From positions 12,547 through 76,546 of IMG/VR virus record IMGVR_UViG_3300025112_006940: a stretch of 64,000 nt of DNA. One strand, written 5' to 3'. The notes beneath the pieces were generated by a model. That model was not told where the DNA came from, made no database searches, and saw nothing but the letters and a program-made list of their open reading frames with translations. Made by a program: the position numbers and the translations under genes. Source of the stretch: a virus. Each line of letters opens with the position of its first letter. Position 1 is the stretch's first letter. This document shows positions 6,619 to 34,066 of this stretch, piece by piece.

Positions 6619-7590
6619 ATGAAATCACATATTGATAATTTTTGTGGTGGTAATTTCAGCAACTGGTTAGAAGTTAATCTTATTGAGCATTGTAATGGCT
6701 CTTGTTCATGGTGTATAGAAAAAAATGGTTTTCACCCAAAGCAAAAAGTTGAGTGGCATATTTTAGTTGACAAAATATTAGAAACAAATGCAACTAATAT
6801 AATCCTTCTCGGCGGCGAACCAACCCTCCATCCACGACTACAAGAAATTATAGAACGTCTATCAAATGCAGGAAGAAAAGTTTATGTTACCACGAATGGT
6901 GTAATGTTAACATCAAAATGGGTAAGAAAAAATCTTGTAGGGTTAGCCGGTATTAATATTTCAATTCATCATTATGACCTTCCAAATAATAAGATAATTA
7001 CAGGTGTCCATTTAGGCTATATAGATTTATATGATTCCATAAAGCAATTGCAAATAATGGGTAGTTCTATTAGATTAAATTGTAATTGTATTGTGGGGTA
7101 TATTGATAGTAAAGCTCAGTGCATGAAATATATTCAATTTGCAAAAGCTCTCGGAATAAACTCTGTAAGATTTGCAGAACTTAAATTAGATAACGAAAAT
7201 TTTGTTGATTTAGCTATTGAGTTTAATTATGAATATGGTTTAAATGATGATCCTTTTTTATTAGGATGTAATAAGAATTGTAGAATAGATGATGTTGATA
7301 TAAACTTTAGACAAATGTGTGGTTTACAAACAAGTAAAAGAGTTTTGCCAATCAATCCAGAACAAAGTCAAGAAAAATCAGTTTTATATTATGATGGTAA
7401 AATCTATGATGGATGGCAAACAGTAAAAAAGGAGGAGATTGTGGATGATAAAGAATTGTTACAGCTTATGGAAGATGTTAAAAGTGGTAGAGTTTCAGCT
7501 AAAATTGCTGCAATGAAAATAGCTAGAACAATGGGCAATACAAAAATTGTTGAAGTATCCAATAATGATAGTATGGGCTGTCGATATTAA
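6619..7590 (+). CDS. Radical SAM protein
   Basis: CNGSCSWC (CxxxCxxC), LGGEPTL, TTNG motifs. Confidence 0.92.
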   Translation: MKSHIDNFCGGNFSNWLEVNLIEHCNGSCSWCIEKNGFHPKQKVEWHILVDKILETNATNIILLGGEPTLHPRLQEIIERLSNAGRKVYVTTNGVMLTSKWVRKNLVGLAGINISIHHYDLPNNKIITGVHLGYIDLYDSIKQLQIMGSSIRLNCNCIVGYIDSKAQCMKYIQFAKALGINSVRFAELKLDNENFVDLAIEFNYEYGLNDDPFLLGCNKNCRIDDVDINFRQMCGLQTSKRVLPINPEQSQEKSVLYYDGKIYDGWQTVKKEEIVDDKELLQLMEDVKSGRVSAKIAAMKIARTMGNTKIVEVSNNDSMGCRY

Positions 7591-12239: not shown

Positions 12240-14102
12240 TTGGATATTTCACAACAAATTTTATCTGATATTACAGTACATATGAAATATGCTAAATATT
12301 TATTAGAACTTAACAGAAGGGAAACATGGGAAGAAATAGTATATCGTAATAAAGAGATGCACAAAAAAAAGTTTAAGCATTTAGGTTTAGATTTTTTAAA
12401 AATGATTGATAACGCTTATGAATTTGTTTATCAAAAAAAGATTTGCCCATCCATGAGAAGTATGCAATTTGCTGGAAAACCAATTGAAATTTCTCCAAAT
12501 AGAGTTTACAATTGTGCCTATCTTCCTATAGATGATTATAGGGCGTTTGGTGAAATAATGTTTCTATTATTAGGTGGGACAGGAATTGGCTATTCTGTAC
12601 AAAAGCATCATGTTGAAAAATTACCAGAAATTAGAAGACCTACAAAAAAACGTAGATTTTTAATTAGCGATTCAATTGAAGGATGGGCCGATGCAATTAA
12701 GGCATTAATGAAAGCTTATTTTTCTGGCAAATCTTTGCCAGTATTTGATTTTTCTGATATTAGAGTAAAAGGCGCAGCATTGATAACAAGTGGTGGTAAA
12801 GCACCTGGGCCAGAACCATTAAAGGATTGTTTGCATAATCTTAAAAAAGTTTTTGATAGAAAGCATGATGGCAATCAATTATCTACACTTGAAGCTCATG
12901 ATATGGTATGTTATATTGCCGATGCTGTTCTAGCAGGCGGGATTAGAAGGGCTGCATTAATATCTTTATTTTCTATGGATGATGAAGAAATGGCAGCATG
13001 TAAATTTGGAAATTGGTGGGAAGAAAATCCACAAAGAGGTAGGTCAAATAATTCTGCATGCATTGCAAGACATAGAATTAAAAAATATGAATTCAAAAAT
13101 TTATGGAAAAAAATTGAAAAATCTAATGCAGGCGAGCCAGGAATATATTTTACAAATGATATAGAATGGGGGACAAATCCATGTTGTGAAATTGCGTTAA
13201 GGGCATTTCAATTTTGTAATCTTACAGAAATTAATGTATCTAATGTAGAATCACAAGAAGACTTAAATGAAAGGGCAGCAGCGGCAGCATTTTTAGGTAC
13301 ATTACAAGCATCATATACAGATTTTCATTACCTTAGAGATATATGGAAAAGAACAACTGAAAAAGATGCATTAATTGGCGTTGGAATGACTGGCATAGCA
13401 AGTAAGAAAATATTTGATTTTTCTTTAGAGAAAGCTGCCGATATAGTCAAATCTACTAATAAAGAAATTTCAAAATTAATAGGTATTAATGAAGCTGCAA
13501 GAATGACTTGTATAAAACCATCTGGAACATCATCATTAGTATTGGGTTGTTCTTCTGGGATACATGCATGGCATAATGATTATTACATAAGAAGAATAAG
13601 AGTAGGAAAAAATGAAGCAATTTATTCGTATCTTTCTATTTATCATCCAGAGTTATTAGAGGATTGTTTTTTTAAGCCTAAAATAGATGCTGTTATTTCT
13701 ATCCCGCAAAAGGCACCAGATTATTCAATATATAGAACGGAAAATGCAATTGATTTATTAGAAAGAATAAAATATTTTCATGAAAATTGGATTGATTCAG
13801 GGCATTCACAAGGAAATAACAGTCATAATGTTTCTGCAACAGTATCTATAAAAAATGAAGAATGGGATAACGTTGGTGAATGGATGTGGAAAAATAGAAA
13901 GCACTATAATGGTTTAGCATGCTTGCCATTTGATGGAGGTTCATATGTTCAAGCCCCATTTGAAGATTGCGATAGCATGACTTTTGATAAATTATTTTCA
14001 AAATTACATGAAATAGATTTGACAAAAGTAATTGAAATGAATGATAATACAAATTTAAAAGGTGAATTAGCTTGTTCTAGCGGTGTTTGCGAAATAGTTT
14101 AA
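12240..14102 (+). CDS. nrdJ: Class II (AdoCbl-dependent) ribonucleotide reductase
   Basis: PSMR, YNCAY, RRAALISL, TNPCCEI, CNLTE, KPSGT, C-terminal CSSGVCEI; no beta subunit adjacent. Confidence 0.88.
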   Translation: MDISQQILSDITVHMKYAKYLLELNRRETWEEIVYRNKEMHKKKFKHLGLDFLKMIDNAYEFVYQKKICPSMRSMQFAGKPIEISPNRVYNCAYLPIDDYRAFGEIMFLLLGGTGIGYSVQKHHVEKLPEIRRPTKKRRFLISDSIEGWADAIKALMKAYFSGKSLPVFDFSDIRVKGAALITSGGKAPGPEPLKDCLHNLKKVFDRKHDGNQLSTLEAHDMVCYIADAVLAGGIRRAALISLFSMDDEEMAACKFGNWWEENPQRGRSNNSACIARHRIKKYEFKNLWKKIEKSNAGEPGIYFTNDIEWGTNPCCEIALRAFQFCNLTEINVSNVESQEDLNERAAAAAFLGTLQASYTDFHYLRDIWKRTTEKDALIGVGMTGIASKKIFDFSLEKAADIVKSTNKEISKLIGINEAARMTCIKPSGTSSLVLGCSSGIHAWHNDYYIRRIRVGKNEAIYSYLSIYHPELLEDCFFKPKIDAVISIPQKAPDYSIYRTENAIDLLERIKYFHENWIDSGHSQGNNSHNVSATVSIKNEEWDNVGEWMWKNRKHYNGLACLPFDGGSYVQAPFEDCDSMTFDKLFSKLHEIDLTKVIEMNDNTNLKGELACSSGVCEIV

Positions 14103-14143: not shown

Positions 14144-14398
14144 ATGAATGAAACAACAATTCGTCGTAGCTACTTAACTCCTAAATTTGATGTTAGGCCA
14201 GCTAAAAAAGAAGTAAAAAAACCAGGCTTATTTTTTGAAGATAGGGTAGAAAATCTTGCTAAAAAATATAAGACAATTGATGAAATATGGAAACATATGA
14301 CATTAGGGCAAGTATCACGATATAGTACAATAGGTCCAAAGATTTTTTTAGGAACAAAGTTAATTTACGATGAATCAACAGGAGAAACTTTTGTATGA
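14144..14398 (+). CDS. Hypothetical protein
   Basis: ORF coupled to the dCMP deaminase gene. Confidence 0.55.
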   Translation: MNETTIRRSYLTPKFDVRPAKKEVKKPGLFFEDRVENLAKKYKTIDEIWKHMTLGQVSRYSTIGPKIFLGTKLIYDESTGETFV

Positions 14399-14877
14399 TG
14401 ACTATCTTAGAGGATTTAGAACAAATTCTAGATTGCTATTGTGATAATAGTAGATTAGAATTTGAAGAAGTTTTTATTTTATTTACTAAGATACTTTCAT
14501 ATAGAAGCAGTTGTGCAAAAACAAAACAAGCAGCATTACTTGTTAATAATAACAGAGTAATTTCAATTGGTGTAAATGGGCCGCCATCTGGTGGAATAAA
14601 TTGTATAGCAGATGGCGGCGAAGAAGTATGCGGAAAAGATCTTTCAGGTAGTTGCTTAGAAGGGATTCATGCCGAACAAAATTGTCTTGGATATGCATCA
14701 AGATATGGAATAAGAACTGACAATTGTAAATTGTATGTAACAATGACGCCTTGTATAAATTGCGCCAAACTTATTATAGCTGCTGGAATTGAAGAATATA
14801 TTTACATTGATGATTATAGAATAACTGAAGGCATAGATTTTTTAAATAATCATGGTATTAAAACAAGAAAAATTTAA
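14395..14877 (+). CDS. dCMP deaminase
   Basis: RSSC, GVNG, HAEQN, PCINC zinc motifs. Confidence 0.92.
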   Translation: MMTILEDLEQILDCYCDNSRLEFEEVFILFTKILSYRSSCAKTKQAALLVNNNRVISIGVNGPPSGGINCIADGGEEVCGKDLSGSCLEGIHAEQNCLGYASRYGIRTDNCKLYVTMTPCINCAKLIIAAGIEEYIYIDDYRITEGIDFLNNHGIKTRKI

Positions 14878-14885
14878 GGAGAGGC

Positions 14886-15917
14886 ATGCCAAGAGAACTT
14901 GAGACAATAGAAGATATGTATATAAATTGTATATATAGAGTATTTGGGGGCAATAAAATAGATGCTGTTACAGATCCTTCATCAATTACATATGGTAAAG
15001 CAAGTAGGGAACGAATAGGATTAAGCTATAAAATAGAAAATCCATTAAGCAGGATAATTTTAAACCCAGCTAGAAAATTTAATATATTGCAAGTTATGGG
15101 TCATTTTTTATGGATTATGAAAGGTGATAATATTCTAAAAAATGTTAGTTATTATAATCCTAAGGCCTCTGCACTTTCAGATGATGGTATAACACATAGA
15201 GCTGCATATGGTGAAAGATTGATGTTTTGTAGTAATGGCAATGGTGGAATAAAAATTGATCAACTGAAAAATGTTATAACTAGACTGAAAATGGATTTAC
15301 AATCAAGGAGAGCATTTGCTACTATATATAATCCAGTAATTGATAGCTGTTGTATGCAAACAAATGATTTTCCATGTACGATTGGTTATCAATTTTTAAT
15401 TAGAAATAATAAGCTTGATATGATATGTTTTATGAGATCTCAAAGTGTTTTATTTGTAATGCCATATGATGTTTTTATAAATACAATGCTTCAAGAATAC
15501 ATGGCAAAAAGATTAGGGGTGGAAATTGGAAATTATTATCATACGGGCGGAAGTTTTCACTTTTTTGAAAATGAAACTAAGTTTGCAGAAAAAATTATAG
15601 AAGCTGATTATATTATTCCTGAAAATTTTTCAATGCCAAAAATGTATGATAATGTATTAGATGGTTTAAATCATGTATTAGAACATGAAACATTAATCAG
15701 GGAATCTGCAGTAGCAGGCTCTTATATTCATCTTCCAGATGATCATGCAGATGAATATGGGAAATATTGGGGCGATATTATACGACTCTTAGAAATATAT
15801 GCTATAGATAAAATAGAAAAAGATATATCTGAACATATAAGAAAAACATATGAAAGAAAGGTATTGATAAAAAAATTACATCCAACATATCAAGCTGCAT
15901 TGGAGATTTTAGAATGA
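14886..15917 (+). CDS. Thymidylate-synthase-fold pyrimidine-modifying enzyme (probably dCMP-specific)
   Basis: AYGER, SRRA, PCT, MRSQS....PYD, GSFH; Asp at the E. coli ThyA N177 position. Confidence 0.85.
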   Translation: MPRELETIEDMYINCIYRVFGGNKIDAVTDPSSITYGKASRERIGLSYKIENPLSRIILNPARKFNILQVMGHFLWIMKGDNILKNVSYYNPKASALSDDGITHRAAYGERLMFCSNGNGGIKIDQLKNVITRLKMDLQSRRAFATIYNPVIDSCCMQTNDFPCTIGYQFLIRNNKLDMICFMRSQSVLFVMPYDVFINTMLQEYMAKRLGVEIGNYYHTGGSFHFFENETKFAEKIIEADYIIPENFSMPKMYDNVLDGLNHVLEHETLIRESAVAGSYIHLPDDHADEYGKYWGDIIRLLEIYAIDKIEKDISEHIRKTYERKVLIKKLHPTYQAALEILE

Positions 15918-17029
15918 CTCATGAATTAATGGCAGGAAATTTATGGACTTTTGACTATCTTGTTGCTTGCAAAAAATTAAATGATGATAATCCAAAAGCT
16001 AAAATAGTGGAAATGTATGGATCAATTAAAGGATTAGATCCAATTGGTTCTGCTAGACCAGATTCAAGATTACCCTTAGTTGCTAAAAAAGATTTTGAAG
16101 CATACGTTAGCAAGGCAATTACATATGGAATTGAAATTAATTACACTCTTAATATTTCATGTATTGGTGAATTGAGTGAATTAGAAAAAAATGAATTAAA
16201 AATTGCAGATTTTTTACGTTATATAGAATTTTATGGTGTAAAAAGAGTTACAGTAGCACATCCATTGATAGCTCAATTAGTAGCAAAATATACAGATATT
16301 GCCGTTGAAATTTCTACAATTATGCATGTTGAAACTATTGGACAATTACAAAAATATAAAGAAATGTGCCCTAATGTAGATAAAGTATGCATGAATTTGT
16401 ATCGCAACAGAGATTTTAAATTTTTAAATCAATTCAAAAAAGAAGCCGATAAACTTGGTATCATAACAGAACTTATGGCAAATGAATTTTGTTCAATAGG
16501 AGGAATTCCTTGTTATGGACTTTACAGAAACTCATGTTATATGGTCCATTCCCATGGCGGAAACGATGAACTCAATTTTGAAGGCTATCCAATTAAAGGC
16601 CCTGGTGGATGTATCACTTCAAGAATACAAAGCCCAGCATCTTACCTTAAAGCACGTTTTATTCTTCCACAATGGTACGACAAATATTTCAACGAAACGG
16701 GGATATCGCATTTTAAGATTACTGGAAGAACTCATTCTATCGAAGATGTATTACCCATCGTTAAGTCCTATTCTAAGGGTACTTTTAATGGCAACTTAAT
16801 GGATTTATGGTTGCTAGATAAAGATCATGCTGATTTAAATATTGATTCAAGTTTATTAAAAGATTTTATAGATCATTGGATTGAAAATGCAGATTTTCCA
16901 TGTGATAAAATGTGTGGAATAAATTGTCAAATATGTGATGATGCATTTAAAGAAATCTGCCCAGATATTCCATTGTATCGCCCAAAACTTATTCATAGCA
17001 TTGATGAAAAAATAGGAATTGAAAAATGA
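15914..17029 (+). CDS. Peptidase-U32-family Fe-S hydroxylase-like protein
   Basis: INYTLN, EISTI, NEFC...C...C...C, FKITGR, C-terminal CxxxCxxxCxxC. Confidence 0.82.
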   Translation: MTHELMAGNLWTFDYLVACKKLNDDNPKAKIVEMYGSIKGLDPIGSARPDSRLPLVAKKDFEAYVSKAITYGIEINYTLNISCIGELSELEKNELKIADFLRYIEFYGVKRVTVAHPLIAQLVAKYTDIAVEISTIMHVETIGQLQKYKEMCPNVDKVCMNLYRNRDFKFLNQFKKEADKLGIITELMANEFCSIGGIPCYGLYRNSCYMVHSHGGNDELNFEGYPIKGPGGCITSRIQSPASYLKARFILPQWYDKYFNETGISHFKITGRTHSIEDVLPIVKSYSKGTFNGNLMDLWLLDKDHADLNIDSSLLKDFIDHWIENADFPCDKMCGINCQICDDAFKEICPDIPLYRPKLIHSIDEKIGIEK

Positions 17030-18078
17030 ATGTTTTGATAATTCAACAATACAGTATGAGGTCTTATGAAAACAATGAATATCTATTTGATAAAGATGGA
17101 CATTCAGATACAATGCTTTCATTGATCAAAGGTGTTGATAAAGAAGATTACAATTTCACAATTGTTGTTCCTGATAATGTAAGAGGTGGATTAAAGGCCG
17201 TAAAAAAATATATAGATTTTTGGAAAATAAAAAGTAATGTAATGATTCTATGTAAAAAATTTGGTATTAACATTGATGAAGAAAGATCAGATTTTGATAG
17301 ACAATATTGGAAAAATGTTATTGAAGAAAACAATGTAGATTTAGTAATTAATATGAATGATGTTATTGCCCCAAATCTTGCAACGTTAAGAAGGTATTGC
17401 AGTAAAACATTTAAGATTTATACAATACTTGATCATATGCCATTTTATAAACATTCATGGCAACATCCTAATCATGGAAAAATTCACAGAATACTGGAAT
17501 CAATTGATGTATCAGATAGGGTATTTACATACTTCGAACATACGCAATCAATATTAAGTTATCTATCAAAAAGAGAAATAAGCCTAATTCCAGCATTTTC
17601 AACTGAATTTTTAAATAAATTTGCAATGAGAGATTTAACAAATTATTCAGAATTGCATGAACTTATAGATGAAAAACATGAAAAAACATTATTGGCATCA
17701 AGATTAACTGATAAAACAAAATATACACCTGAAGCAATTAAGCAACATTGTAACGCACGTAGCACTGATTTATTGATTTGTAATCCAAATGAATTAAACG
17801 AAAAATTTATAGATGATGCATTTAAAGATGCTGAATTCCCAAAATTAAAAACAAAAAATGATTTTTTAAAACTGCTTTCAAAATCTATGTATATGATTAA
17901 TACAATAGATCCAGAAGTAATTTTATCTTCATCATCATTGCAGGCAATTTATTATGCATGCGAATTAGAACCGTTTAGAAGATATGATAGAGATTATTTG
18001 ATGATTAAACAGTTTAAATTTATTAACAACTATTCAATAGAATATACACCAACAAAATTAAGGAGGTTATATTCATGA
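17026..18078 (+). CDS. Putative glycosyltransferase (GT-B-like)
   Basis: Size, Rossmann-like start MNVLII, VDLVINMN, SLQAIYYAC end; context in modification cluster. Confidence 0.45.
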   Translation: MNVLIIQQYSMRSYENNEYLFDKDGHSDTMLSLIKGVDKEDYNFTIVVPDNVRGGLKAVKKYIDFWKIKSNVMILCKKFGINIDEERSDFDRQYWKNVIEENNVDLVINMNDVIAPNLATLRRYCSKTFKIYTILDHMPFYKHSWQHPNHGKIHRILESIDVSDRVFTYFEHTQSILSYLSKREISLIPAFSTEFLNKFAMRDLTNYSELHELIDEKHEKTLLASRLTDKTKYTPEAIKQHCNARSTDLLICNPNELNEKFIDDAFKDAEFPKLKTKNDFLKLLSKSMYMINTIDPEVILSSSSLQAIYYACELEPFRRYDRDYLMIKQFKFINNYSIEYTPTKLRRLYS

Positions 18079-18614
18079 TGCCAATGATAGTACTTGAAGG
18101 TCCTGATTTTGCAGGAAAAAGTTTTTATGCAAAAAAATTAATGAAGTATTTGAGAAAACACTATAGACTTTTAGAAAGTAATATAACAAAAGAACTTGAA
18201 ATACCTAAAAAAGAATTCAATAAAACAATTCAGCTTATAGGACATCATAGCTATATCATATTAAGAGAATTACAAGATTCCCCCATAATTGCAATAAGGT
18301 TAGCGGTTTCTGATATAGTTTATTCAAACGTATTTAAAAGAAATCAAGATTTAAGTTGGATAAATTTAAAAAGAGATTTTCCAGATGCAAAATTTATTCA
18401 TTTGACTACTTCATGTTTTGATGTAATTAAAAAACGTCGTAAAAATAGAGAGGATTATACAAACGAAGAAGAAAATTTTGAAATATATAAAGAATATTAT
18501 CTTGCTTTTCCAAAACTTGGCATTGATTATTTAGAGCTAAATAATGATAGCTTTAAAAATACTGAAAGAAATATAGGGCAAATAATTAATTTTGTATTTT
18601 CGGAGGGATTATGA
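18075..18614 (+). CDS. dNMP (thymidylate-like) kinase
   Basis: IVLEGPDFAGKS P-loop, R..SDIVY. Confidence 0.85.
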   Translation: MMPMIVLEGPDFAGKSFYAKKLMKYLRKHYRLLESNITKELEIPKKEFNKTIQLIGHHSYIILRELQDSPIIAIRLAVSDIVYSNVFKRNQDLSWINLKRDFPDAKFIHLTTSCFDVIKKRRKNREDYTNEEENFEIYKEYYLAFPKLGIDYLELNNDSFKNTERNIGQIINFVFSEGL

Positions 18615-21600
18615 GTCAAATTGAAACATATACCCATCTTCATTGCCATTCATCTGGTTCATTAATGGATGGTGTTGCAAAACCTGCTGATAATGCTAAA
18701 CGTGCTGCAGAATTAGGAATGCAAGCAATTGCATTAACAGATCATGGAACTCTTGCAGGATTATTTGAATTTCAAAAAACATGCGAAGAAGTTGGGGTTA
18801 AGCCTATACTTGGCAATGAAATGTATATTGTAGATGATATGAATTCAGGCCCTATTTCAGATGAAGAAAGAGAAACATTATCAAGAGAACAAAGAAAAGA
18901 ATTACAAAGAACTAGAATGAGAACTTCTCATGTAATTTTATTAGCAGAAAATCAAAAAGGGCTTGAAAATCTTTATACATTGAATTATTATGCTAATAAA
19001 AATGGTTATTATTATCGTCCAAGAATTGATCTAAATTTACTTAGGGATCATCATGAAGGATTAATTGCAACAACTACTTGTGTTGCATCTAAAATAGCAA
19101 GATATTTTTTTAATGGAGATGAAAATTTAGCAATTAGGCATTTTGAAGATATGTTAGATTTATTTGGCGAAGATAAGTATTTCATAGAAATGCATCCTCA
19201 TGAAATTGATATGCAGCTTAATTATAACAGATTTTTAATTGATAAAATTAAATCAAAATACAAAGATGTTAAATGTATATTGGCAAATGATTCTCATTAT
19301 GCAAGACCTAACGATAATGAAGCACATAAATTTTTGTTAAGCATTACAACAGATGATATGGTTCCTGGCTGTAAAAATTTGTATGTAGCATCCGAAGAAG
19401 ACATGAGAAAATTTTGGCATGAAAATAATCATGGTAAATACATAGATGAAAAATATTTGAATGAAGCTATTGAAACAACAAAAGAAATTGCTACAAGATG
19501 TAATGCACGTATTGATATGGAATCATTAAAAGAGCCTGAATTTACATTGCCAGAAGGATGGGAGGGACATGACAATAAACATTACATGGGCCATATTTTG
19601 CAAAATGCCCTTAGGGATAAAAGAGATAAGGGGTTAATACCAGAAGATAGAGTTGACGAATATCTTGAACGTCTTAAATATGAATTTAATATAATTGCAG
19701 ATAAAGGCTATATAGATTACTTTCTTATAGTAATGGATTTTATAAAATGGGCTAAAGATAATGACATTCTAGTTGGGCCTGGACGAGGTTCTGCTGCTGG
19801 ATCATTATTATCATGGCTATTGGAAATAATTGAAGTAGATCCAATAAAATATGAATTATCATTTGATAGATTTTTAAATCCGTTGAGAAATAAGGCACCG
19901 GATATTGATACAGATATTGAAAAATACAGAAGAGAAGAAGTAAGGGATTATATTGCTAATAAATGGGGTGAAGCAAATATAGCACCAATTGGGGCATATG
20001 CAAGATATTCAGCAAATAGTTTATTTAGGGAGGTATGCAAAAATCTTGAATACGATTTTTCAGATGTAAATAAAGTTGCTAAAAATATAGATTCTTCAGG
20101 TGATGAATATAGGTCATTAAAAACATTTAAAGAAAATGTAAATGAAAAGTCAGTAATAAAGGCATTCATGGACAAAATTCCAAAAGAAGAAGCTGAACAA
20201 ATATATAGCTTAGTTGGTGCTATTGAAGGTAATTATAGAAATTTAAGTGTTGCTGCAGCTGGAACTATTATTTCGTCTAGACCGCTTTATGAAATTGTGC
20301 CTTTAAGGAAAACAAAAGATGATACAATCATAACTGAATGGGACGGCAGGGATCTTACAGATGCTAAGTATCTTAAAATTGATATGCTTGGAATTGCTAC
20401 ATTATCAATTGTTAAAAATGTAATGGATAGAGTTGGTATGACTATCAGAGAATTATATGATATGCCTTTATACATTGAAGATGTTAAAGATCCAGAAGAA
20501 AAGAAGATCTATGAAAAATGTTATGAAGAATTTAGAAAAGGTCATACAGAGGCAATATTTCAATTTGAATCAGGTGGAATTACTGAGTTAATGAAAAACA
20601 TTTCTCCAGATTCTATAAATGATATATCTGCTACAAATGCATTATACAGACCTGGTCCGTTAGCTACAGGCGCAGCAAGTAACTTCTATAAAAGAAAGAA
20701 CAAAAAGACTGATGTTTTTAAGAATGAATTTCATCCTACATTGTTTGATAACGTATTAAAGGAAACATATGGTCTTATAGTTTATGAAGAACAAATTACT
20801 GAAATGTTTAATTTATTAGGGCTTGATTATGGCGATGCAGATATATTGAGAAGAGGTATGGAAGAACATGACCAAGAAAAAACACAGCATTATCTTGACA
20901 AATTATTAGCAAAGCCAGAATCAGAATTACCATTTAGCAAGGCTGAAGTTAAACAAACATTTGAAAATATTCAAAGACATGAAGGCTATGCATTTAATAA
21001 ATCTCATTCATTATCATATGCGATTGTTGCTTTTTGGACAATGTACATGAAAGTGAAATACAAAAAAGAATTTTGCGAAGAGGTTTTAAATGACCATATT
21101 AATGATGATGGAAAATTACCAATGTATATTAACATGACATTAAATTGTTTTCCAGATTTGAAGTTAAGCATGGGTGATATTAACATGTTTTCAGATAAGT
21201 TTGTTATTGAAGATGGTCAACTTAAATTTGCATTAAATACTACAAAAGGTATTGGAAAAGCCTTAATTAAGAAATTGCTTAAGATGAAAAATGATGGTAA
21301 GGTTTGGGAAAATTTTCAAGATTTCTTTATGAATAGCAAAATTTCTGTTAACAACATCATTAATTTGGTAAAAATAGGAATATTTGATAATACTGATTTT
21401 GGTAATGGTAGAAATTATAATAGAAAAACATTAGTTGATATTATTGAGTTTTTAGAAATAATAAGAAGCGCAAAAGTAAAGGAAAAAAAGCCATTTTTTG
21501 AAAAACTTGGCATAGATAACATTGAAGGTATGTTTAATCATGATATCATAAAAAAATATATGTCTAATATTGGTGGAAATATAGATCAAAAAGATTACAG

Positions 21601-21985
21601 TGCAAGGGATCTTGCAATAATTGAAAATGATCTCATTGGCTTTAGATTAACTGGCGATAGTGATGAATTTATACAGGCTATAACTTCTGCAGGAGTTATG
21701 GCATGTGGTAACTGGAAATCTAAATTGGAACCTGTATGGGGCAAAATAACAAATGTGGATATGAAAAAGACAAAAAGAGGGCAACCATATGCAGTGGCAA
21801 AAATAACAGATAATGAAACATCTATAAGCTTAAAATTATGGTCTAATCAACTTAAAAAATATGGTGGGATGCTTATCAATGGAAATGTAATTGTAGTAAA
21901 TCTTTCAAAAGATAGGTTTGGTTATGCATTAGTAAATGCAAAGCATGAAGATACAATGTTTGATGAATTTTCTATGACAACATAA
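18611..21985 (+). CDS. dnaE: DNA polymerase III alpha subunit (family C)
   Basis: PHP HLHCHS/LTDHG, GPGRGSAAGSL, PDIDTD, KIDMLG, YAFNKSHS, C-terminal OB fold. Confidence 0.96.
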   Translation: MSQIETYTHLHCHSSGSLMDGVAKPADNAKRAAELGMQAIALTDHGTLAGLFEFQKTCEEVGVKPILGNEMYIVDDMNSGPISDEERETLSREQRKELQRTRMRTSHVILLAENQKGLENLYTLNYYANKNGYYYRPRIDLNLLRDHHEGLIATTTCVASKIARYFFNGDENLAIRHFEDMLDLFGEDKYFIEMHPHEIDMQLNYNRFLIDKIKSKYKDVKCILANDSHYARPNDNEAHKFLLSITTDDMVPGCKNLYVASEEDMRKFWHENNHGKYIDEKYLNEAIETTKEIATRCNARIDMESLKEPEFTLPEGWEGHDNKHYMGHILQNALRDKRDKGLIPEDRVDEYLERLKYEFNIIADKGYIDYFLIVMDFIKWAKDNDILVGPGRGSAAGSLLSWLLEIIEVDPIKYELSFDRFLNPLRNKAPDIDTDIEKYRREEVRDYIANKWGEANIAPIGAYARYSANSLFREVCKNLEYDFSDVNKVAKNIDSSGDEYRSLKTFKENVNEKSVIKAFMDKIPKEEAEQIYSLVGAIEGNYRNLSVAAAGTIISSRPLYEIVPLRKTKDDTIITEWDGRDLTDAKYLKIDMLGIATLSIVKNVMDRVGMTIRELYDMPLYIEDVKDPEEKKIYEKCYEEFRKGHTEAIFQFESGGITELMKNISPDSINDISATNALYRPGPLATGAASNFYKRKNKKTDVFKNEFHPTLFDNVLKETYGLIVYEEQITEMFNLLGLDYGDADILRRGMEEHDQEKTQHYLDKLLAKPESELPFSKAEVKQTFENIQRHEGYAFNKSHSLSYAIVAFWTMYMKVKYKKEFCEEVLNDHINDDGKLPMYINMTLNCFPDLKLSMGDINMFSDKFVIEDGQLKFALNTTKGIGKALIKKLLKMKNDGKVWENFQDFFMNSKISVNNIINLVKIGIFDNTDFGNGRNYNRKTLVDIIEFLEIIRSAKVKEKKPFFEKLGIDNIEGMFNHDIIKKYMSNIGGNIDQKDYSARDLAIIENDLIGFRLTGDSDEFIQAITSAGVMACGNWKSKLEPVWGKITNVDMKKTKRGQPYAVAKITDNETSISLKLWSNQLKKYGGMLINGNVIVVNLSKDRFGYALVNAKHEDTMFDEFSMTT

Positions 21986-22001: not shown

Positions 22002-22388
22002 ATGGATAGACTTGAGCAAATGTTTGAACAACAAAAATATCTACAAGAATATCTTGCAAGATATAAACCAGACGCAGCTTGTATTCCTGGTGCAGATGAA
22101 GAGGAAAAGTTTAAAAATATGATTTTATTGCTTATAAAAGAATGTACAGAAGTTTTAGATGAGATTAATTTTAAACCGCATAAATTATCTAAGATTAAGG
22201 TAAATAAAGATAAAATAGCAGAAGAGTTAGTAGATGTATTAAAATATTGGATGAATCTTGCATTATTAACAGGGTTAGATACTGATGATATATATGCCAT
22301 GTTTATAAAAAAATCATCGATAGTTTTAGAAAGATTCAAAGAGGAATTAAAAAATGCTAAAAAAGGACACGGCCAAGTTAACAATTAA
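22002..22388 (+). CDS. All-alpha NTP pyrophosphatase (MazG/dimeric dUTPase/T4 gp56 dCTPase-like)
   Basis: ECTEVLDE and EELVDVLKY motifs. Confidence 0.8.
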   Translation: MDRLEQMFEQQKYLQEYLARYKPDAACIPGADEEEKFKNMILLLIKECTEVLDEINFKPHKLSKIKVNKDKIAEELVDVLKYWMNLALLTGLDTDDIYAMFIKKSSIVLERFKEELKNAKKGHGQVNN

Positions 22389-26696: not shown

Positions 26697-27497
26697 ATGA
26701 AACTTACATTCGTAGGTTGTGGTTCTGCATTTAATAAGTTAAGTCTTCAAAGCAATATGCTTTTAGAAGCTGAGTCTGGTAAAAAAATGCTTATTGATTG
26801 TGGTTCTTATGCGCATATAGGATTATTATCTGCATTAGGGATTAATGAAACAAATTATGCAGATGAAATTGATTCTATTTATATTTCACATCAACATGGA
26901 GATCATATTGATGGGTTAGAAGAAATTGCATTTTGCACATATTTTAATCCTAATGCTCCAAAAATTGCACTTTATTGCGAGCAATATCTAATGCATAGAA
27001 TTTGGGATGAAAGTCTTAAAGGTGGATTAGGATCTGTTCAAGGCAAAGTAATGCATCTTACAGATTATTTTGATTGTAGGCCATTGAATGTTAATGTTAT
27101 AAATCAATGGGAGGGAATTAATTTTGAATTAGTTCAAACACTTCATGTGATGAATGGATTTGAATTTGTTCCAAGCTATGGTTTAATGATAAAAGAAGAA
27201 AAGGTAAATGCTAAAAATATATTTTTAACAACAGATACACAACATTGCCCAAATCAAATTCAAGATTTTTATGATATGGCAGATGTTATATTTCATGATT
27301 GTGAAACAGCACCTTATTTTTCTGGTGTTCATGCCCGCTATGATGAATTAAAAACGCTGAATAAAGAAACAAAAAAGAAAATGTGGTTATATCATTATCA
27401 ACCGGAACCACCACAAATGAAAACTGCAAGAGAAGATGGTTTTAGAGGACTAGTTACAAGAGGCCAAAGTTTTAAGTACGAGGTGAAAAATGAGTGA
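26697..27497 (+). CDS. MBL-fold hydrolase, Apyc1-like (anti-Pycsar cyclic-NMP phosphodiesterase)
   Basis: GCGSAF, LIDCG, SHQHGDHIDGLEE, WDESLKGGL, LTDYF, FHDC, GVHA..DEL, LYHY. Confidence 0.8.
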   Translation: MKLTFVGCGSAFNKLSLQSNMLLEAESGKKMLIDCGSYAHIGLLSALGINETNYADEIDSIYISHQHGDHIDGLEEIAFCTYFNPNAPKIALYCEQYLMHRIWDESLKGGLGSVQGKVMHLTDYFDCRPLNVNVINQWEGINFELVQTLHVMNGFEFVPSYGLMIKEEKVNAKNIFLTTDTQHCPNQIQDFYDMADVIFHDCETAPYFSGVHARYDELKTLNKETKKKMWLYHYQPEPPQMKTAREDGFRGLVTRGQSFKYEVKNE

Positions 27498-28509
27498 ATT
27501 AATTGTTGAAGTTTGTAAAATAGATGAAATAAGATCACATAGTAATGCAGATAAATTAGAAATTGCTATAGTGAAGGGGTGGTCTGTTATTACACAAAAA
27601 GGAAAATATAAGGCTGGAGATCTAGTTGTCCATGTTCCCCCAGATACGATTCTTACTGAAGAACTTTCAGAACAGCTCGAAGTTACAAAATACCTTTCTA
27701 AGCAAAGAGTAAAGGCTGTAAGATTACGTGGTGAAATGAGTTTTGGTTTAATATTTGAGCCACCACTTGGGCATCATCAAGAAGGTACGTCAGTTGTAGA
27801 TTTTTATAAAATGAGAAAATGGGAGCCACCTGAAGAATCTATTCAAGGTGATTCAGAAGTAGATGCTACATTTTTTGTTAAATACACAAGCATTGAAAAC
27901 TATAGAAATTTTCCTTTGATGATTGCTGAAGGTGAAGATGTAATTATAACTGAAAAAATTCATGGAACAAATTCAAGAGTAGGATATTGTTTTGATACTA
28001 AGGCGCAAGAACCTATTTTCATGATTGGCTCTCATAACAGACGAAGAAAAATTGATGTTGAGAGCTTATATCATAAACCATTAACTGATAATGTAAAATC
28101 ATTGCTTAAACAATTATATGATAGCTGGGACAATTGTGCAGCAGTAATTTTATATGGCGAAATTTATGGACGTGGTATTCAAGATTTAGGTTATGATATA
28201 GAACATTCTTTTGCTGCATTTGATATAAAGAGAGATGATCATTATTTTGATTATTCAGCAATGAAAGATTTATGTGATTCATTTGAAATTCCAACAGTTC
28301 CAGTATTATATCGTGGCCCATTTAGCAAAGAAATTTTAGAAAAATATTACATGGGCACTACAATAGTTGGAAATAATTCAAATCAAATTAGGGAAGGCGT
28401 TGTTGTTAAACCAACTTTTGAACATAGAAATGCTCGTGGTCGTAGAGTAATATTGAAAATGATAAGCGATGATTATCTCGTTAGAAAAGATGGTACAGAA
28501 AGACATTAG
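27490..28509 (+). CDS. RNA ligase, DRB0094 family
   Basis: N-terminal HSNADKLE OB-like module; TEKIHGTN, YGEIYG, FDI, REGVVVKP, LKMIS. Confidence 0.9.
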   Translation: MSELIVEVCKIDEIRSHSNADKLEIAIVKGWSVITQKGKYKAGDLVVHVPPDTILTEELSEQLEVTKYLSKQRVKAVRLRGEMSFGLIFEPPLGHHQEGTSVVDFYKMRKWEPPEESIQGDSEVDATFFVKYTSIENYRNFPLMIAEGEDVIITEKIHGTNSRVGYCFDTKAQEPIFMIGSHNRRRKIDVESLYHKPLTDNVKSLLKQLYDSWDNCAAVILYGEIYGRGIQDLGYDIEHSFAAFDIKRDDHYFDYSAMKDLCDSFEIPTVPVLYRGPFSKEILEKYYMGTTIVGNNSNQIREGVVVKPTFEHRNARGRRVILKMISDDYLVRKDGTERH

Positions 28510-30898: not shown

Positions 30899-33800
30899 TT
30901 GAAAATTGCCCATTGCGCAGATATTCATATACGTTTATTAAAAAGACATAGCGAATATAGCAAAGTATTTGATAATTTTCAGAGATCATTATTTGAAAAT
31001 GAAATTGATAGAATTGTTGTTGCAGGAGATTTATTTCATAATAAGGTAAGTTTATCACCAGAGGCAGTAAGATTAGGCAGGGATTTTTTACAAAAAATTG
31101 CTCAAGCTGCTCCTGTTGATATAATAGTAGGAAATCATGATTGTATAGTAAACCAGCCTAATAGACTAGATGCAATCACTCCAGTTTTAGATCATATAGA
31201 TGAATTAACACATTCTATAAATTTGTGGGAAAATAGTGGAATATTTAACATTGAAGATAACATAAATTATGGAATTTTTGCAATAAACGATGAAGATAAT
31301 TTTCCATACATAATTGATGATAAAAAAGATGATCAAATTTACATAGCATTATTTCATGGAGCTATAAACAAAGCAAAAACTGATGTTGAATATGCTTTAA
31401 AATCTAGATATAATGTTAATATGTTTGATAATTATGATTTTGCATTTTTAGGTGATATTCATAAAATGCAAGTTTTATCATACGATCGTGCAATGAATCC
31501 AAAAATAGCATATTCAGGTAGTCTTATACAACAAAATCATGGTGAAGTAATAGATAAAGGATATTTAATTTGGGATACAGAAGAATTATCAACTAAATTT
31601 GTAAAAGTAGAAAATGACTATGGTTTTTATACAATAAAGCTTAATGATATTGATGCTAATAATTTAACAAATTTAGCATTTGAAGGTGTTCCAAAAAAAC
31701 CATACATAAGAGTTCTTGTTGGCGGCTCTTCATATAATCAAGTTACATTAAATAACATAGCTTCGACTGTTAGAGAAATGTATAATCCATTATCACTTTC
31801 TGTTGAAGTAGATATGACTAGCGATAATGAAAATATTGATATAGAAGACTTAGAAATTGAAAATGTTACTCAATTATCAGTTCAACAAAAACTACTTAGA
31901 AATTGGTTTGATAATTCATCTTTAACAAAAACAGAAATTGATAATATACTTAGCATACATTCAGAAATATTTAATACTTCAATTGAAGTAGAAACAAAAA
32001 ATAGAGGAATAAATTGGAATGTTCATAGAATGAATTTTTCAAATACATTTTCTTATGGAGAGGATAATTCAATTGATTTTGATTCATTGGATGGGCTTGT
32101 AGGAATATTTGCACCGAACAGGGCTGGAAAATCTGCGCTCTTGGCTACATTGTTAAATGGTCTATTTAATATGTCAGATAGAGTATCTAGAAGCAATATC
32201 TCAGATCTTATAAATTCAAATGAAAGTAATGCTTCAATTGAAATATATTTTTCAGTTGATAATAGAAAATTTGTTATAATGAGAATTATTGAAAGAAGAC
32301 CAGATAATCCAAATAAGGGAAAAACTAAAATTGCATTATGGGAAATAATTGCTGGGCAAAGAATACCATTATCTGGAGATGCAAGAGTAAACGAAACTGA
32401 GCAAATGTTAAAAAATATGTTAGGTAGTTATTTAGACCATAGATTAACAACATTTGGAATGCAAAATGACCTATCCAGTTTTTTAGATCAAAATCAAGCT
32501 AGCAGAAAAGAGTCATTATCAAAATTTTTAGGACTTGATGTTATAGATCAATTATATTGGGCAATTAAGGCTGAAAATGATGGACTTAAAAAGTTGATAA
32601 AACAATACAAGGAGCATGATTTTAATGCAATACTTGATGGCTATATAAAGGAAAGAGATTCTATAGAAATAGAATTGGCAGATGCTAATAAGCTGAAAAA
32701 TAAGATATCAAAACAAATATCAAAAATAAATGAAAAAATAAATGAAAAAACTAAGCAAATTGAAAATGTAGATTATTCTAATGATGTAGATATTAAGGGC
32801 AAAATTCGTTCTTTAGAGATGCTTATAAAAAATGAGAAACAGCATATTATTGATAGCGAAAATGAAAAGAAGCAAATACAAAAATCTATAGACGATATTG
32901 AAAATGAATTAAATGATTTTGATGAATTATTACGCAGCAAAATTAAATCAAAATTAGTTGAAAATAAGGAAAAACATTTATTCATAATGAATAGCATAAT
33001 GTTGTTGAAAAAAGATTTAAAAAATGCTAAATCATTATCAGAAATTCTTGAAAAACATGATTGGTTTGAAAAAAATGATTATTGCAAAAAATGTTCATTT
33101 TTATCTGAGGCCTTTATTGCTAAAAATTCATTAGACAATTTTTTATTGCAAATTGAAGAAAAGAATAAGGAAGCAATTGAAGTAAATGAAAAAATAGAAA
33201 AGGCACAAATTATTGAATCTGAATTTGAAATATTGGAAACAAAACTTCATGATCAAAAAAGATTAGCATCCACTTTAGATTTATTAGAATTAAGATTGAA
33301 AAATGATAAACAAAATGCAGAGTATACTATAAAAGAACTGGACGATGCCAAACAATTATTAAAACTATACGAAAAAAATGAAGCAACAATTGAAAAAAAT
33401 GAAAGATTAGAAAATGAAATCGCGAAGCAAAGAAAAGATCTAAATACATTTTCAGACCAAAGCAATGGAATTGACAATTTCATAAATAAGCGAAATGTTG
33501 AATTAGGTGGAATAAAACAAAAAATTGACGATCTTGGAAATTCCATGCAGCATTTAACTGAAATTGAAGAAACATTTAGATTGTCATCAATGTTACAAAA
33601 TGCATTATCAAAAGACGGTATTCAATTACAGATCATAAAAAAAGTTATCCCAAGAATTAATATGGAGCTTAGGAAAATACTTTCAAATGTTACTGACTTT
33701 GATATTATACTTGAAATTGATGATGAATCAAGAGATATAGGAATTTATATAGACGATGGAAATAGTAAGAGGTCATTAGATCTTGGTTCCGGAATGGAAA

Positions 33801-34066
33801 AATCAACAGGGTCAATAGCAATAAGGGCTGCTATAGCAAATATATCATTAATCCCCAGATGTAATTTATTTATTATAGATGAAGGATTCGGTACATTAGA
33901 TTCTGATAATTTAAATAACATGAATATGCTGCTTGGCTACCTTAAATCAATTTTTAAAACAGTTATTATAATATCTCATATTTCTGAGATGCAAGATATA
34001 GTTGATCATATCATAACAATGGAAAGGGATGAAAATGGGTATTCGAAAATTAAGTTCGGCAATTGA
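30899..34066 (+). CDS. Fused SbcD/Mre11 nuclease and SbcC/Rad50 ATPase
   Basis: ADIH, AGDLFH, GNHD, LGDIH; Walker A APNRAGKS, CKKC hook, GSGME signature, IIDEGFG, IISH. Confidence 0.92.
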   Translation: MKIAHCADIHIRLLKRHSEYSKVFDNFQRSLFENEIDRIVVAGDLFHNKVSLSPEAVRLGRDFLQKIAQAAPVDIIVGNHDCIVNQPNRLDAITPVLDHIDELTHSINLWENSGIFNIEDNINYGIFAINDEDNFPYIIDDKKDDQIYIALFHGAINKAKTDVEYALKSRYNVNMFDNYDFAFLGDIHKMQVLSYDRAMNPKIAYSGSLIQQNHGEVIDKGYLIWDTEELSTKFVKVENDYGFYTIKLNDIDANNLTNLAFEGVPKKPYIRVLVGGSSYNQVTLNNIASTVREMYNPLSLSVEVDMTSDNENIDIEDLEIENVTQLSVQQKLLRNWFDNSSLTKTEIDNILSIHSEIFNTSIEVETKNRGINWNVHRMNFSNTFSYGEDNSIDFDSLDGLVGIFAPNRAGKSALLATLLNGLFNMSDRVSRSNISDLINSNESNASIEIYFSVDNRKFVIMRIIERRPDNPNKGKTKIALWEIIAGQRIPLSGDARVNETEQMLKNMLGSYLDHRLTTFGMQNDLSSFLDQNQASRKESLSKFLGLDVIDQLYWAIKAENDGLKKLIKQYKEHDFNAILDGYIKERDSIEIELADANKLKNKISKQISKINEKINEKTKQIENVDYSNDVDIKGKIRSLEMLIKNEKQHIIDSENEKKQIQKSIDDIENELNDFDELLRSKIKSKLVENKEKHLFIMNSIMLLKKDLKNAKSLSEILEKHDWFEKNDYCKKCSFLSEAFIAKNSLDNFLLQIEEKNKEAIEVNEKIEKAQIIESEFEILETKLHDQKRLASTLDLLELRLKNDKQNAEYTIKELDDAKQLLKLYEKNEATIEKNERLENEIAKQRKDLNTFSDQSNGIDNFINKRNVELGGIKQKIDDLGNSMQHLTEIEETFRLSSMLQNALSKDGIQLQIIKKVIPRINMELRKILSNVTDFDIILEIDDESRDIGIYIDDGNSKRSLDLGSGMEKSTGSIAIRAAIANISLIPRCNLFIIDEGFGTLDSDNLNNMNMLLGYLKSIFKTVIIISHISEMQDIVDHIITMERDENGYSKIKFGN

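Follow-up and report, generated by a model that had tools for sequence, protein, structure and literature searches.

This study concerns a stretch of viral DNA of 64,000 nucleotides, hereafter the window, which covers positions 12,547 to 76,546 of the IMG/VR record IMGVR_UViG_3300025112_006940, and in particular a thymidylate synthase (TS) homologue of 343 amino acids (aa) encoded there at 14886..15917 on the + strand. We consider this TS-fold protein a candidate flavin-dependent synthase of 5-hydroxy-deoxycytidine monophosphate (5-hydroxy-dCMP, 5hodCMP), of a variant with serine at position 169. The record has 76,546 bp with a CheckV completeness of 41%, and the window is AT-rich (~30% GC) with almost every gene on the + strand. 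Upstream of the TS gene lies a dCMP deaminase of the zinc deaminase type (14395..14877, +; Pfam PF00383, 4e-16; phrog_174, 1e-36), which supplies deoxyuridine monophosphate (dUMP) and is probably tied to the supply of thymidine triphosphate (dTTP) in a phage of such low GC content. Downstream follow, all on the + strand, a U32-family Fe-S protein (15914..17029; PF01136; phrog_5757, 3e-64) orthologous to RB69 gp50 and JS09_0134, a GT-B fold glycosyltransferase (GT) of 350 aa that is a distant member of the RB69 gp46:47 (Aat1) family (17026..18078), a P-loop nucleotide kinase of the Tmk-like type whose place corresponds to that of RB69 gp45 (18075..18614; phrog_761, 3e-12), a DnaE-type DNA polymerase III alpha of 1124 aa (18611..21985) and a MazG-like all-alpha deoxynucleoside triphosphate (dNTP) pyrophosphatase (22002..22388; PF08761, 1e-8; PF03819, 3e-6; phrog_173, 1e-11). 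Stop and start codons overlap as ATGA between an 84-aa open reading frame (ORF) and the deaminase, and again at the TS/U32, U32/GT, GT/kinase and kinase/DnaE junctions. The start ATG of the TS gene, 8 nt past the deaminase stop, is preceded by an AGGAG site of its own.

The 343-aa protein matches Pfam PF00303 with 1e-19 and 71 bits (cut-off 24.3) and the thymidylate-synthase families of PHROG with a best value of 3.5e-46; the NCBIfam TS equivalogs all stay far under their cut-offs, the top model giving 76.6 bits versus the 174.55 required. Its closest solved relative by sequence is MilA, a cytidine monophosphate (CMP) hydroxymethylase (8e-36 across residues 35–305). An AlphaFold2 (AF2) model, made with 30 homologues in the alignment, has a mean predicted local distance difference test (pLDDT) value of 93.9, and in Foldseek it matches MilA over the full length, C-terminal domain included, with template modelling (TM) scores of 0.82/0.88, and the core of ThyA enzymes with a TM of ~0.58. 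Among isolated phages, the best matches come from Bacillus phage G (gp319) and SP-10 and belong to the RSND type. A locus search of IMG/VR with the TS protein alone found no related loci.

Residues were numbered through a MAFFT alignment with E. coli ThyA, T4 gp42 and JS09 gp48, the latter being used as a stand-in for RB69 gp48, to which it is 99.2% identical. An earlier sequence-only reading of this gene had compared it by eye with ThyA, and the alignment with ThyA, gp42 and JS09 gp48 places the residues as it had claimed. Cys164, within a DFPC motif, takes the position of the catalytic Cys146 of ThyA and R184-S185 that of R166-S167, followed by Q186 at C168, S187 at D169, D195 at N177, H225 at H207 and F227 at Y209; the motifs RSQS....PYD and GSFHFF correspond to residues 184–195 and 222–227 of the protein. 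The R126/R127, H207 and Y94 positions are also kept. Further substitutions are D161 (L143D), H73 (E58H), Ala at W80 (W80A), V191 (G173V), M192 (L174M) and Q186 (C168Q). The positions E58, W80, D169 and G173, all of them altered here, lie in or near the folate/C5 pocket, and in place of the Glu58/Asp169/Gly173 set of folate enzymes the window protein has His73, Ser187 and Val191. The earlier idea of a rewired active site was right in its reading of D169S and N177D; Y209F is not confined to this protein, since Phe209 also occurs in the RB69 type.

The family to which these residues point has been described recently. RB69 gp48 and DLP3 gp80 turn dCMP into 5-hydroxy-dCMP (Lee et al., NAR 2026, PMC13326640); the oxygen in the resulting 5-hydroxydeoxycytidine (5hodC) derives from 18O2, flavin mononucleotide (FMN) co-purifies with both enzymes, and both yield 5hodC in E. 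coli without any phage U32 protein (PMC13326640). Nine more enzymes with D169N each produced 5hodC, and D169N was proposed as the diagnostic of 5hodCMP synthases, beside an acidic residue at 143 and N177D, to which dCMP specificity is ascribed (PMC13326640). The same paper (PMC13326640) credits He et al. (Nat Chem Biol 2026) with a crystal structure of the HY126 enzyme with bound flavin and with its reconstitution in vitro. In the RB69 cluster, the genes for the Tmk-like kinase gp45, the arabinosyltransferase 1 gp46:47, the synthase gp48 and gp50 are followed by UDP-arabinose genes, gp50 being a 5d88-like U32 protein labelled there ‘sugar or heterocycle reductase’ (PMC13326640). The RB69-type synthase is found in 374 phage records, 57 Acinetobacter and 20 Rhizobium phages among them.

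The window protein shares with the synthases RB69 gp48, DLP3 gp80, RL38JI gp216 and HY126 the TS fold, the catalytic Cys, N177D and the acidic residue at 143. With JS09 gp48, of the RB69 type, it has in common Q168, V173, M174, D177, F209 and the loss of D169. The likeness extends to the neighbourhood, as a set formed by TS homologue, U32 protein, Aat1-family GT and Tmk-like kinase is common to the window, to RB69 gp45–gp50 and to Shewanella phage Thanatos-2 (TH2_065–068, in the order TS, GT, kinase, U32). Viral contigs of three further kinds (L007-9, L062 and L064) likewise have a Ser169-type TS gene next to a gene for an Aat1-family GT. Judged by sequence and model, the window protein has the TS fold, the catalytic Cys, Asp177, the acidic residue at 143 and the kinase/GT context expected of a 5-hydroxy-dCMP synthase.

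To study the distribution of residues at position 169, the 150 top-scoring representatives of a search through 1.84 billion proteins were aligned with reference sequences; Asp occurs 81 times, Ser 59 and Asn 20. Asp169 goes with Gly173 and Glu58, as in ThyA, T4 gp42 and MilA: of 73 sequences that combine D169 and G173, 72 keep E58. Where position 169 is Ser or Asn, it is accompanied by Gln168, by Asp177 and by Val, Leu or Ile at 173. Glu58 is present in none of 57 Ser169 sequences and in 3 of 13 Asn169 sequences, all three of the RB69 type (JS09 gp48 and two close relatives), and W80 is replaced by Gly or Ala in the Ser169 class. In a FastTree phylogeny rooted on a single ThyA, and query-biased because it was sampled from the 150 best matches to the window protein, all 90 sequences lacking G173 group in a single clade (support 0.92), to which both the window protein and JS09 gp48 belong, and the 72 sequences with G173 other than the ThyA outgroup all fall outside it. 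The subclade of the window protein (support 1.0) consists of four Ser169 and two Asn169 proteins, the two residues alternating. Its sister, P0002, has Asn169 (54% identity), and so has P0003; the identities to these two closest relatives are 54% and 45%. Because Asn and Ser alternate among the closest relatives, we take Ser169 as a variant within the hydroxylase lineage, a solution that appears equivalent to Asn and not the mark of a different activity. The D169N change as sole diagnostic looks too narrow, since Ser169 outnumbers Asn169 by 59 to 20 among these representatives.

The same alignment contains eight TS homologues (P0144, P0175, P0195, P0198, P0213, P0228, P0091 and P0111) in which the Asn177 of the dUMP type occurs together with N/S169 and with a residue other than Gly at 173. 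These are candidate 5-hydroxy-dUMP synthases, of which no description was found in the literature surveyed.

We favour, with moderate confidence, the reading that the TS homologue of the window is a 5hodCMP synthase that depends on flavin and O2 and has Ser where the characterised enzymes have Asn169. The specificity for dCMP that the sequence-only reading had drawn from N177D is supported, and likewise the departure from 5,10-methylene-tetrahydrofolate (CH2-THF) chemistry that it had drawn from the loss of D169, to which are now added the loss of E58, W80 and G173 and the placement in the hydroxylase clade. Hydroxylation of dCMP at C5 is the most likely product chemistry, because the window protein sits in the clade that holds the enzymes shown to be flavin/O2-dependent 5-hydroxy-dCMP synthases.

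The addition of a Cys to pyrimidine C6 is established chemistry of the TS family. In the pathway that we propose, the MazG-like pyrophosphatase would convert dCTP into dCMP, Asp195 would select dCMP and Cys164 would attack its C6, and the activated C5 would then be hydroxylated by means of reduced flavin and O2, a step shown for the RB69 and HY126 homologues and presumed here. The Tmk-like kinase together with the nucleoside diphosphate (NDP) kinase of the host would carry the product to 5-hydroxy-dCTP (5hodCTP), which the phage DnaE would incorporate instead of C, and the Aat1-family GT-B enzyme would finally glycosylate the 5-OH in DNA. Homology and gene order suggest the kinase, DnaE and GT-B steps. 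Homologues with Ser169 encoded in cellular genomes lie directly 3' of an FAD-dependent oxidoreductase of ~700 aa or beside an S-adenosylmethionine (SAM) methyltransferase fusion, and both contexts fit a flavin-made hydroxyl that is further processed.

Several observations weigh against this assignment. The published diagnostic, Asn169, is Ser187 in the window protein, and all characterised 5hodCMP synthases, the nine additional ones of PMC13326640 included, have Asn169. The two active sites are not identical in another respect, as the RB69 type keeps Glu58 where the window protein has His. The window protein is long and MilA-like, its 343 aa comprising a C-terminal helical domain, in contrast to the 238 aa of RB69 gp48, and its identity to JS09 gp48 is 34% across just 118 residues. 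In addition, the crystal structure of the HY126 enzyme does not appear among the Foldseek matches of the model in the PDB, and the query bias of the tree should be kept in mind. The phages differ as well: the window belongs to a DnaE-replicating phage of 30% GC, whereas the RB69-type synthases occur in Straboviridae or Pootjesviridae, and the arabinose genes of the RB69 system were not seen in the available 76.5 kb of the record.

Some of these differences are the basis of the best surviving alternative, which we consider unlikely: the Ser169 class would modify C5 of dCMP by a third chemistry that involves a different cofactor or substituent, its likeness to the Asn169 hydroxylases being a matter of ancestry only. 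Besides the loss of E58 in 57 of 57 Ser169 sequences, a residue that the RB69 type keeps, and the restriction of characterised enzymes to the Asn169 type, it is favoured by the fact that Ser169 makes up the bulk of a large clade and also occurs in cellular operons that do not resemble the DNA modification contexts of phages, with a radical SAM enzyme, a guanylate kinase–methyltransferase fusion and Ham1. Against it stand the alternation of Asn and Ser within the six proteins most closely related to that of the window and the presence of the same Aat1-family GT beside Ser169 and Asn169 types.

It is less probable still, and in our opinion improbable, that the protein resembles T4 gp42 or MilA in being a folate-dependent hydroxymethylase of dCMP (or CMP), whose product, 5-hydroxymethyl-dCMP (5hmdCMP), would then be glycosylated in DNA by the GT. 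The resemblance is considerable, as MilA is the best solved relative in both sequence and fold, the substitutions L143D and N177D are common to hydroxymethylases, and the best isolated-phage matches, in phages G and SP-10, are of the RSND type. MilA (PDB 5jnh, 5b6d and 5b6e), from the mildiomycin pathway, has Asp143, Asp177 and a C-terminal extension as in the window protein, but it is folate-dependent and keeps D169 and G173 in a RAND...G motif, where the window protein has S169, V173 and H58; the MilA-like sequences of the alignment also keep E58, unlike the window protein. T4 gp42 is similarly a dCMP-specific TS homologue in a glycosylated-cytosine pathway with a dCTPase and a kinase, but it uses CH2-THF to make a hydroxymethyl, not a hydroxyl, and keeps E60, the D169 equivalent, G173 and Y209. 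The hydroxymethylase class as a whole conserves E58 (72/73), D169 (73/73) and G173 (73/73), which are His, Ser and Val in the window protein. Moreover, the window protein falls inside the clade lacking G173, apart from the G173 sequences, and its nearest relatives bear the Asn169 signature of hydroxylases.

The U32 protein encoded next to the TS homologue deserves attention in its own right. Its match to PF01136 is weak (25.6 bits, cut-off 22.4) and confined to residues 97–158; it is 36% identical to JS09 gp50 (2e-66), and the profile of the family matches the solved structure 5d88 with 3e-5. TrhP and RlhA are needed for 5-hydroxyuridine (ho5U) and 5-hydroxycytidine (ho5C), respectively, in RNA, without O2 (PMC6599085, PMC5727448); residues E162, C170 and C177 are essential in TrhP, and so are their equivalents in RlhA (PMC6599085). 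For UbiU/V, prephenate has been shown to be the oxygen donor (PMC10990095). A MAFFT alignment with E. coli TrhP, RlhA, UbiU and UbiV places the equivalents of the three TrhP residues in the window protein at the Glu of ‘TELMA’, C193 and C208, and this set is present in 29 of 34 aligned U32 sequences (the 34 include the four E. coli proteins, three of which have it). C233 aligns with UbiU C193, a third Fe-S ligand position of that protein, and the phage U32 proteins have an additional, invariant C-terminal CX3CX3CX2C motif (C330–C341 in the window). The phage U32 proteins thus keep the essential Glu and two Cys of TrhP and RlhA and the ligand position of UbiU, and the chemistry proposed for them at C5 of pyrimidines is that of the ho5C and ho5U factors. 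They differ in forming a family of their own (phrog_5757), without the U32 C-terminal domain of the TrhP/RlhA/UbiU/UbiV group, and in their presumed substrate, which would be a deoxynucleotide or DNA instead of the RNA or quinone of TrhP, RlhA and UbiU/UbiV.

The distribution of U32 genes bears on how the two proteins are related. Among 45 viral U32 loci, a TS homologue lies within 6 kb in 15 and an Aat1-family GT is present in 28. In 10 of 10 U32-bearing records searched whole, five of which are at least 98% complete, no TS homologue was found by a search that recovers TS in 4 of 5 records known to have one, and PF00303 at E ≤ 1 likewise found none in those five. The U32 phages of 49 kb that lack TS have the gene order SSB (single-stranded DNA-binding protein), MazG, kinase, GT, U32, DnaE. 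A 283-aa ORF 5' of MazG in the TS-less phages was considered as a hidden TS and rejected, since it proved to be an SSB resembling gp32, zinc motif and acidic tail included. A complete genome of 164 kb encodes an arabinose-5-phosphate isomerase, a UDP-arabinose enzyme, an Aat1-family GT and U32, with no TS homologue. That U32 serves mainly in arabinose synthesis was also rejected, since four of the five complete U32 phages have no UDP-arabinose enzyme. Conversely, U32 is found in 222 phage records, and Acinetobacter and Rhizobium are not among the genera listed. Direct searches found U32 in JS09 and Thanatos-2 but not in Acinetobacter phage fHyAci03 or Rhizobium phage RL38J1, whose genomes are complete and encode an RB69-type synthase.

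The least probable of the alternatives, the proposal of the sequence-only reading that the TS homologue merely forms the Cys–C6 adduct and passes dCMP to U32 as the true hydroxylase, in an obligate pair, could draw on the ATGA overlap of the two genes, their proximity in 15 of 45 loci and the tie of U32 proteins to pyrimidine C5 hydroxylation in RNA (PMC6599085, PMC5727448), and we find it very improbable and unsupported because each enzyme occurs without the other in complete phage genomes, as in fHyAci03 and RL38J1 and in the five U32 phages at least 98% complete, and the RB69 and DLP3 homologues work without phage U32.

The TS homologue and U32 are therefore probably separable, parallel modules, and the phage U32 may be an O2-independent hydroxylase in parallel to the synthase, which fits the data better than an obligate pair. 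Acinetobacter and Rhizobium, whose phages lack U32, are aerobes, and Enterobacterales and Shewanella, among whose phages it occurs, are facultative anaerobes; the correlation of U32 with host lifestyle rests on few independent lineages. A broader reading, tentative and in which our doubt somewhat exceeds our confidence, would join two statements: that the Ser169 class is a major branch of the synthases, and that the phage U32 itself hydroxylates C5 of pyrimidines in deoxynucleotides or DNA, as one of two interchangeable routes to 5-hydroxycytosine (5hoC). Under this joint reading, U32 would be O2-independent and probably prephenate-dependent by analogy with TrhP, RlhA and UbiU/V, and phages would carry one or both routes according to the oxygen regime of the host. 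Both routes would be present in the phage of the window, the RB69 group and Thanatos, TS only in the Acinetobacter and Rhizobium phages, and U32 only in five complete metagenomic phages, one of which also has UDP-arabinose genes and an Aat1-family GT. Such an arrangement would mirror the TrhO/TrhP and UbiIHF/UbiUV pairs. A parallel O2-independent hydroxylase role of phage U32 was not proposed in the literature searched, outside of which He et al. 2026 or Mahler et al. 2025 may address it.

The remaining genes of the module were identified with different degrees of ease. The 350-aa protein has no Pfam match, and a word-indexed search gave no relatives. In the first round of phmmer it matched an ORF of locus L064 (1e-6) and the Aat1 orthologue of Proteus phage Pm5461 (6e-5), and its iterated profile converged on 35 Aat1-family ORFs among those of the fetched loci; in addition, its N-terminal part matches JS09 gp46:47. 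The AF2 model (pLDDT 77.9) has a GT-B fold, and Foldseek relates it to UDP-glycosyltransferases and UDP-GlcNAc 2-epimerases (E 2e-8, probability 1.0, TM ~0.5). The 76.5 kb of the 41%-complete record yielded no sugar-nucleotide genes. The kinase at 18075..18614 matches PF02223 under the cut-off (2.8e-5) and JS09 gp45 in the P-loop, and it is a candidate 5hodCMP kinase. The DnaE assignment is based on a PHP-type N-terminus recognised by eye and on the Pfam DnaE matches of ORFs at the same position in loci L013 and L062. The MazG-like protein is a candidate dCTPase that would remove dCTP and supply dCMP; a MazG gene also belongs to the equivalent module of L010, L013, L016, L026 and L033. An HAD-like ORF of 105 aa located 5' of the window showed no similarity to the RB69 gp51-type phosphatase.

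Other observations were made on related loci. The Tmk-like kinase and the dCMP deaminase, separate genes in the window, are fused at L010:5027-5971 and L062:4195-5172, the one fusion adjoining U32 and the other a Ser169 TS gene. Directly 5' of the GT–MazG–kinase–U32 module of L010, a radical SAM/SPASM protein is encoded at L010:2648-3589. A radical SAM protein is also encoded in the window at 6619-7590 (+), and a part in the modification pathway is possible for it. Maribacter phage Molly_1 (L002, 71249-75983) has an RSND-type TS homologue with Asn177, a signature like that of dUMP hydroxymethylases, which adjoins a ‘beta glucosyl transferase’, a UDP-glucose dehydrogenase and an epimerase; this locus may be a glycosylated 5-hydroxymethyluracil (5hmU) system in a Flavobacteriia phage.

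Elsewhere in the record, an open frame of ~50 aa lies ~9.5 kb 5' of the window start (G000:C1:2967-3104; L006:1483-1641), with a C-terminus reading ...DFELRDYQCHKGLKMDVSV*, and matches just the final 46 positions of the Pfam thymidylate synthase model (6e-10). The remainder of its TS gene was not found within the 76.5 kb record, and the frame is either what is left of a canonical thyA or the final exon of a split one. A single ORF of 1055 aa at 30899-34066 (+) of the window combines an SbcD-like nuclease (residues 1–368) with an SbcC-like ATPase (residues 260–1052) and appears to be a fused SbcCD. Finally, a 555-aa TROVE-domain (Ro-like) protein encoded 5' of the window (L076:3690-5357; G000:C1:3690-5357) and an RNA ligase inside it (27490-28509) may form an RNA repair set of the phage.

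Homologues with Ser169 are not confined to viruses, as they occur in metagenome-assembled genomes (MAGs) and genomes of Acidobacteriota, cyanobacteria, Planctomycetales, Jannaschia and Nitrosopumilus. The loci collected belong to Acidobacteriota, Pyrinomonadaceae and Planctomycetales (L065, L067 and L071), to an uncultured-bacterium MAG, cyanobacteria and Jannaschia (L066, L068–L070 and L072) and to Nitrosopumilus (L073 and L075). Two kinds of conserved operon were seen: in the first, the FAD-dependent oxidoreductase gene stands directly 5' of the TS gene, and the second comprises the guanylate kinase–SAM methyltransferase fusion, a radical SAM enzyme, the TS homologue, a 263-aa protein and Ham1. 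A protein of the uracil-DNA glycosylase (UDG) family is encoded next to the TS homologue in Nitrosopumilus. The cellular homologues may make modified cytidine nucleotides.

5-Hydroxycytosine as an anchor for glycosylation in phage DNA was described only in 2025–2026, and its synthase has been recognised by D169N alone. If the Ser169 enzymes are hydroxylases, searches with D169N would miss most of the family, including the homologues of cyanobacteria, Acidobacteriota, Planctomycetes and Nitrosopumilus, and we offer a wider signature consisting of Q168, N/S169, a residue other than Gly at 173, D177 and the loss of E58. If U32 is an O2-independent hydroxylase acting on DNA precursors, this would explain 5hoC in gut phages without O2, and the phage protein would provide a soluble, small-substrate system for the U32 hydroxylation chemistry, which is still unreconstituted. 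The Ser169 class, if our reading is true, would be the major, hitherto unrecognised branch of the 5-hydroxy-(d)CMP synthases, and one that extends to the genomes of bacteria and archaea.

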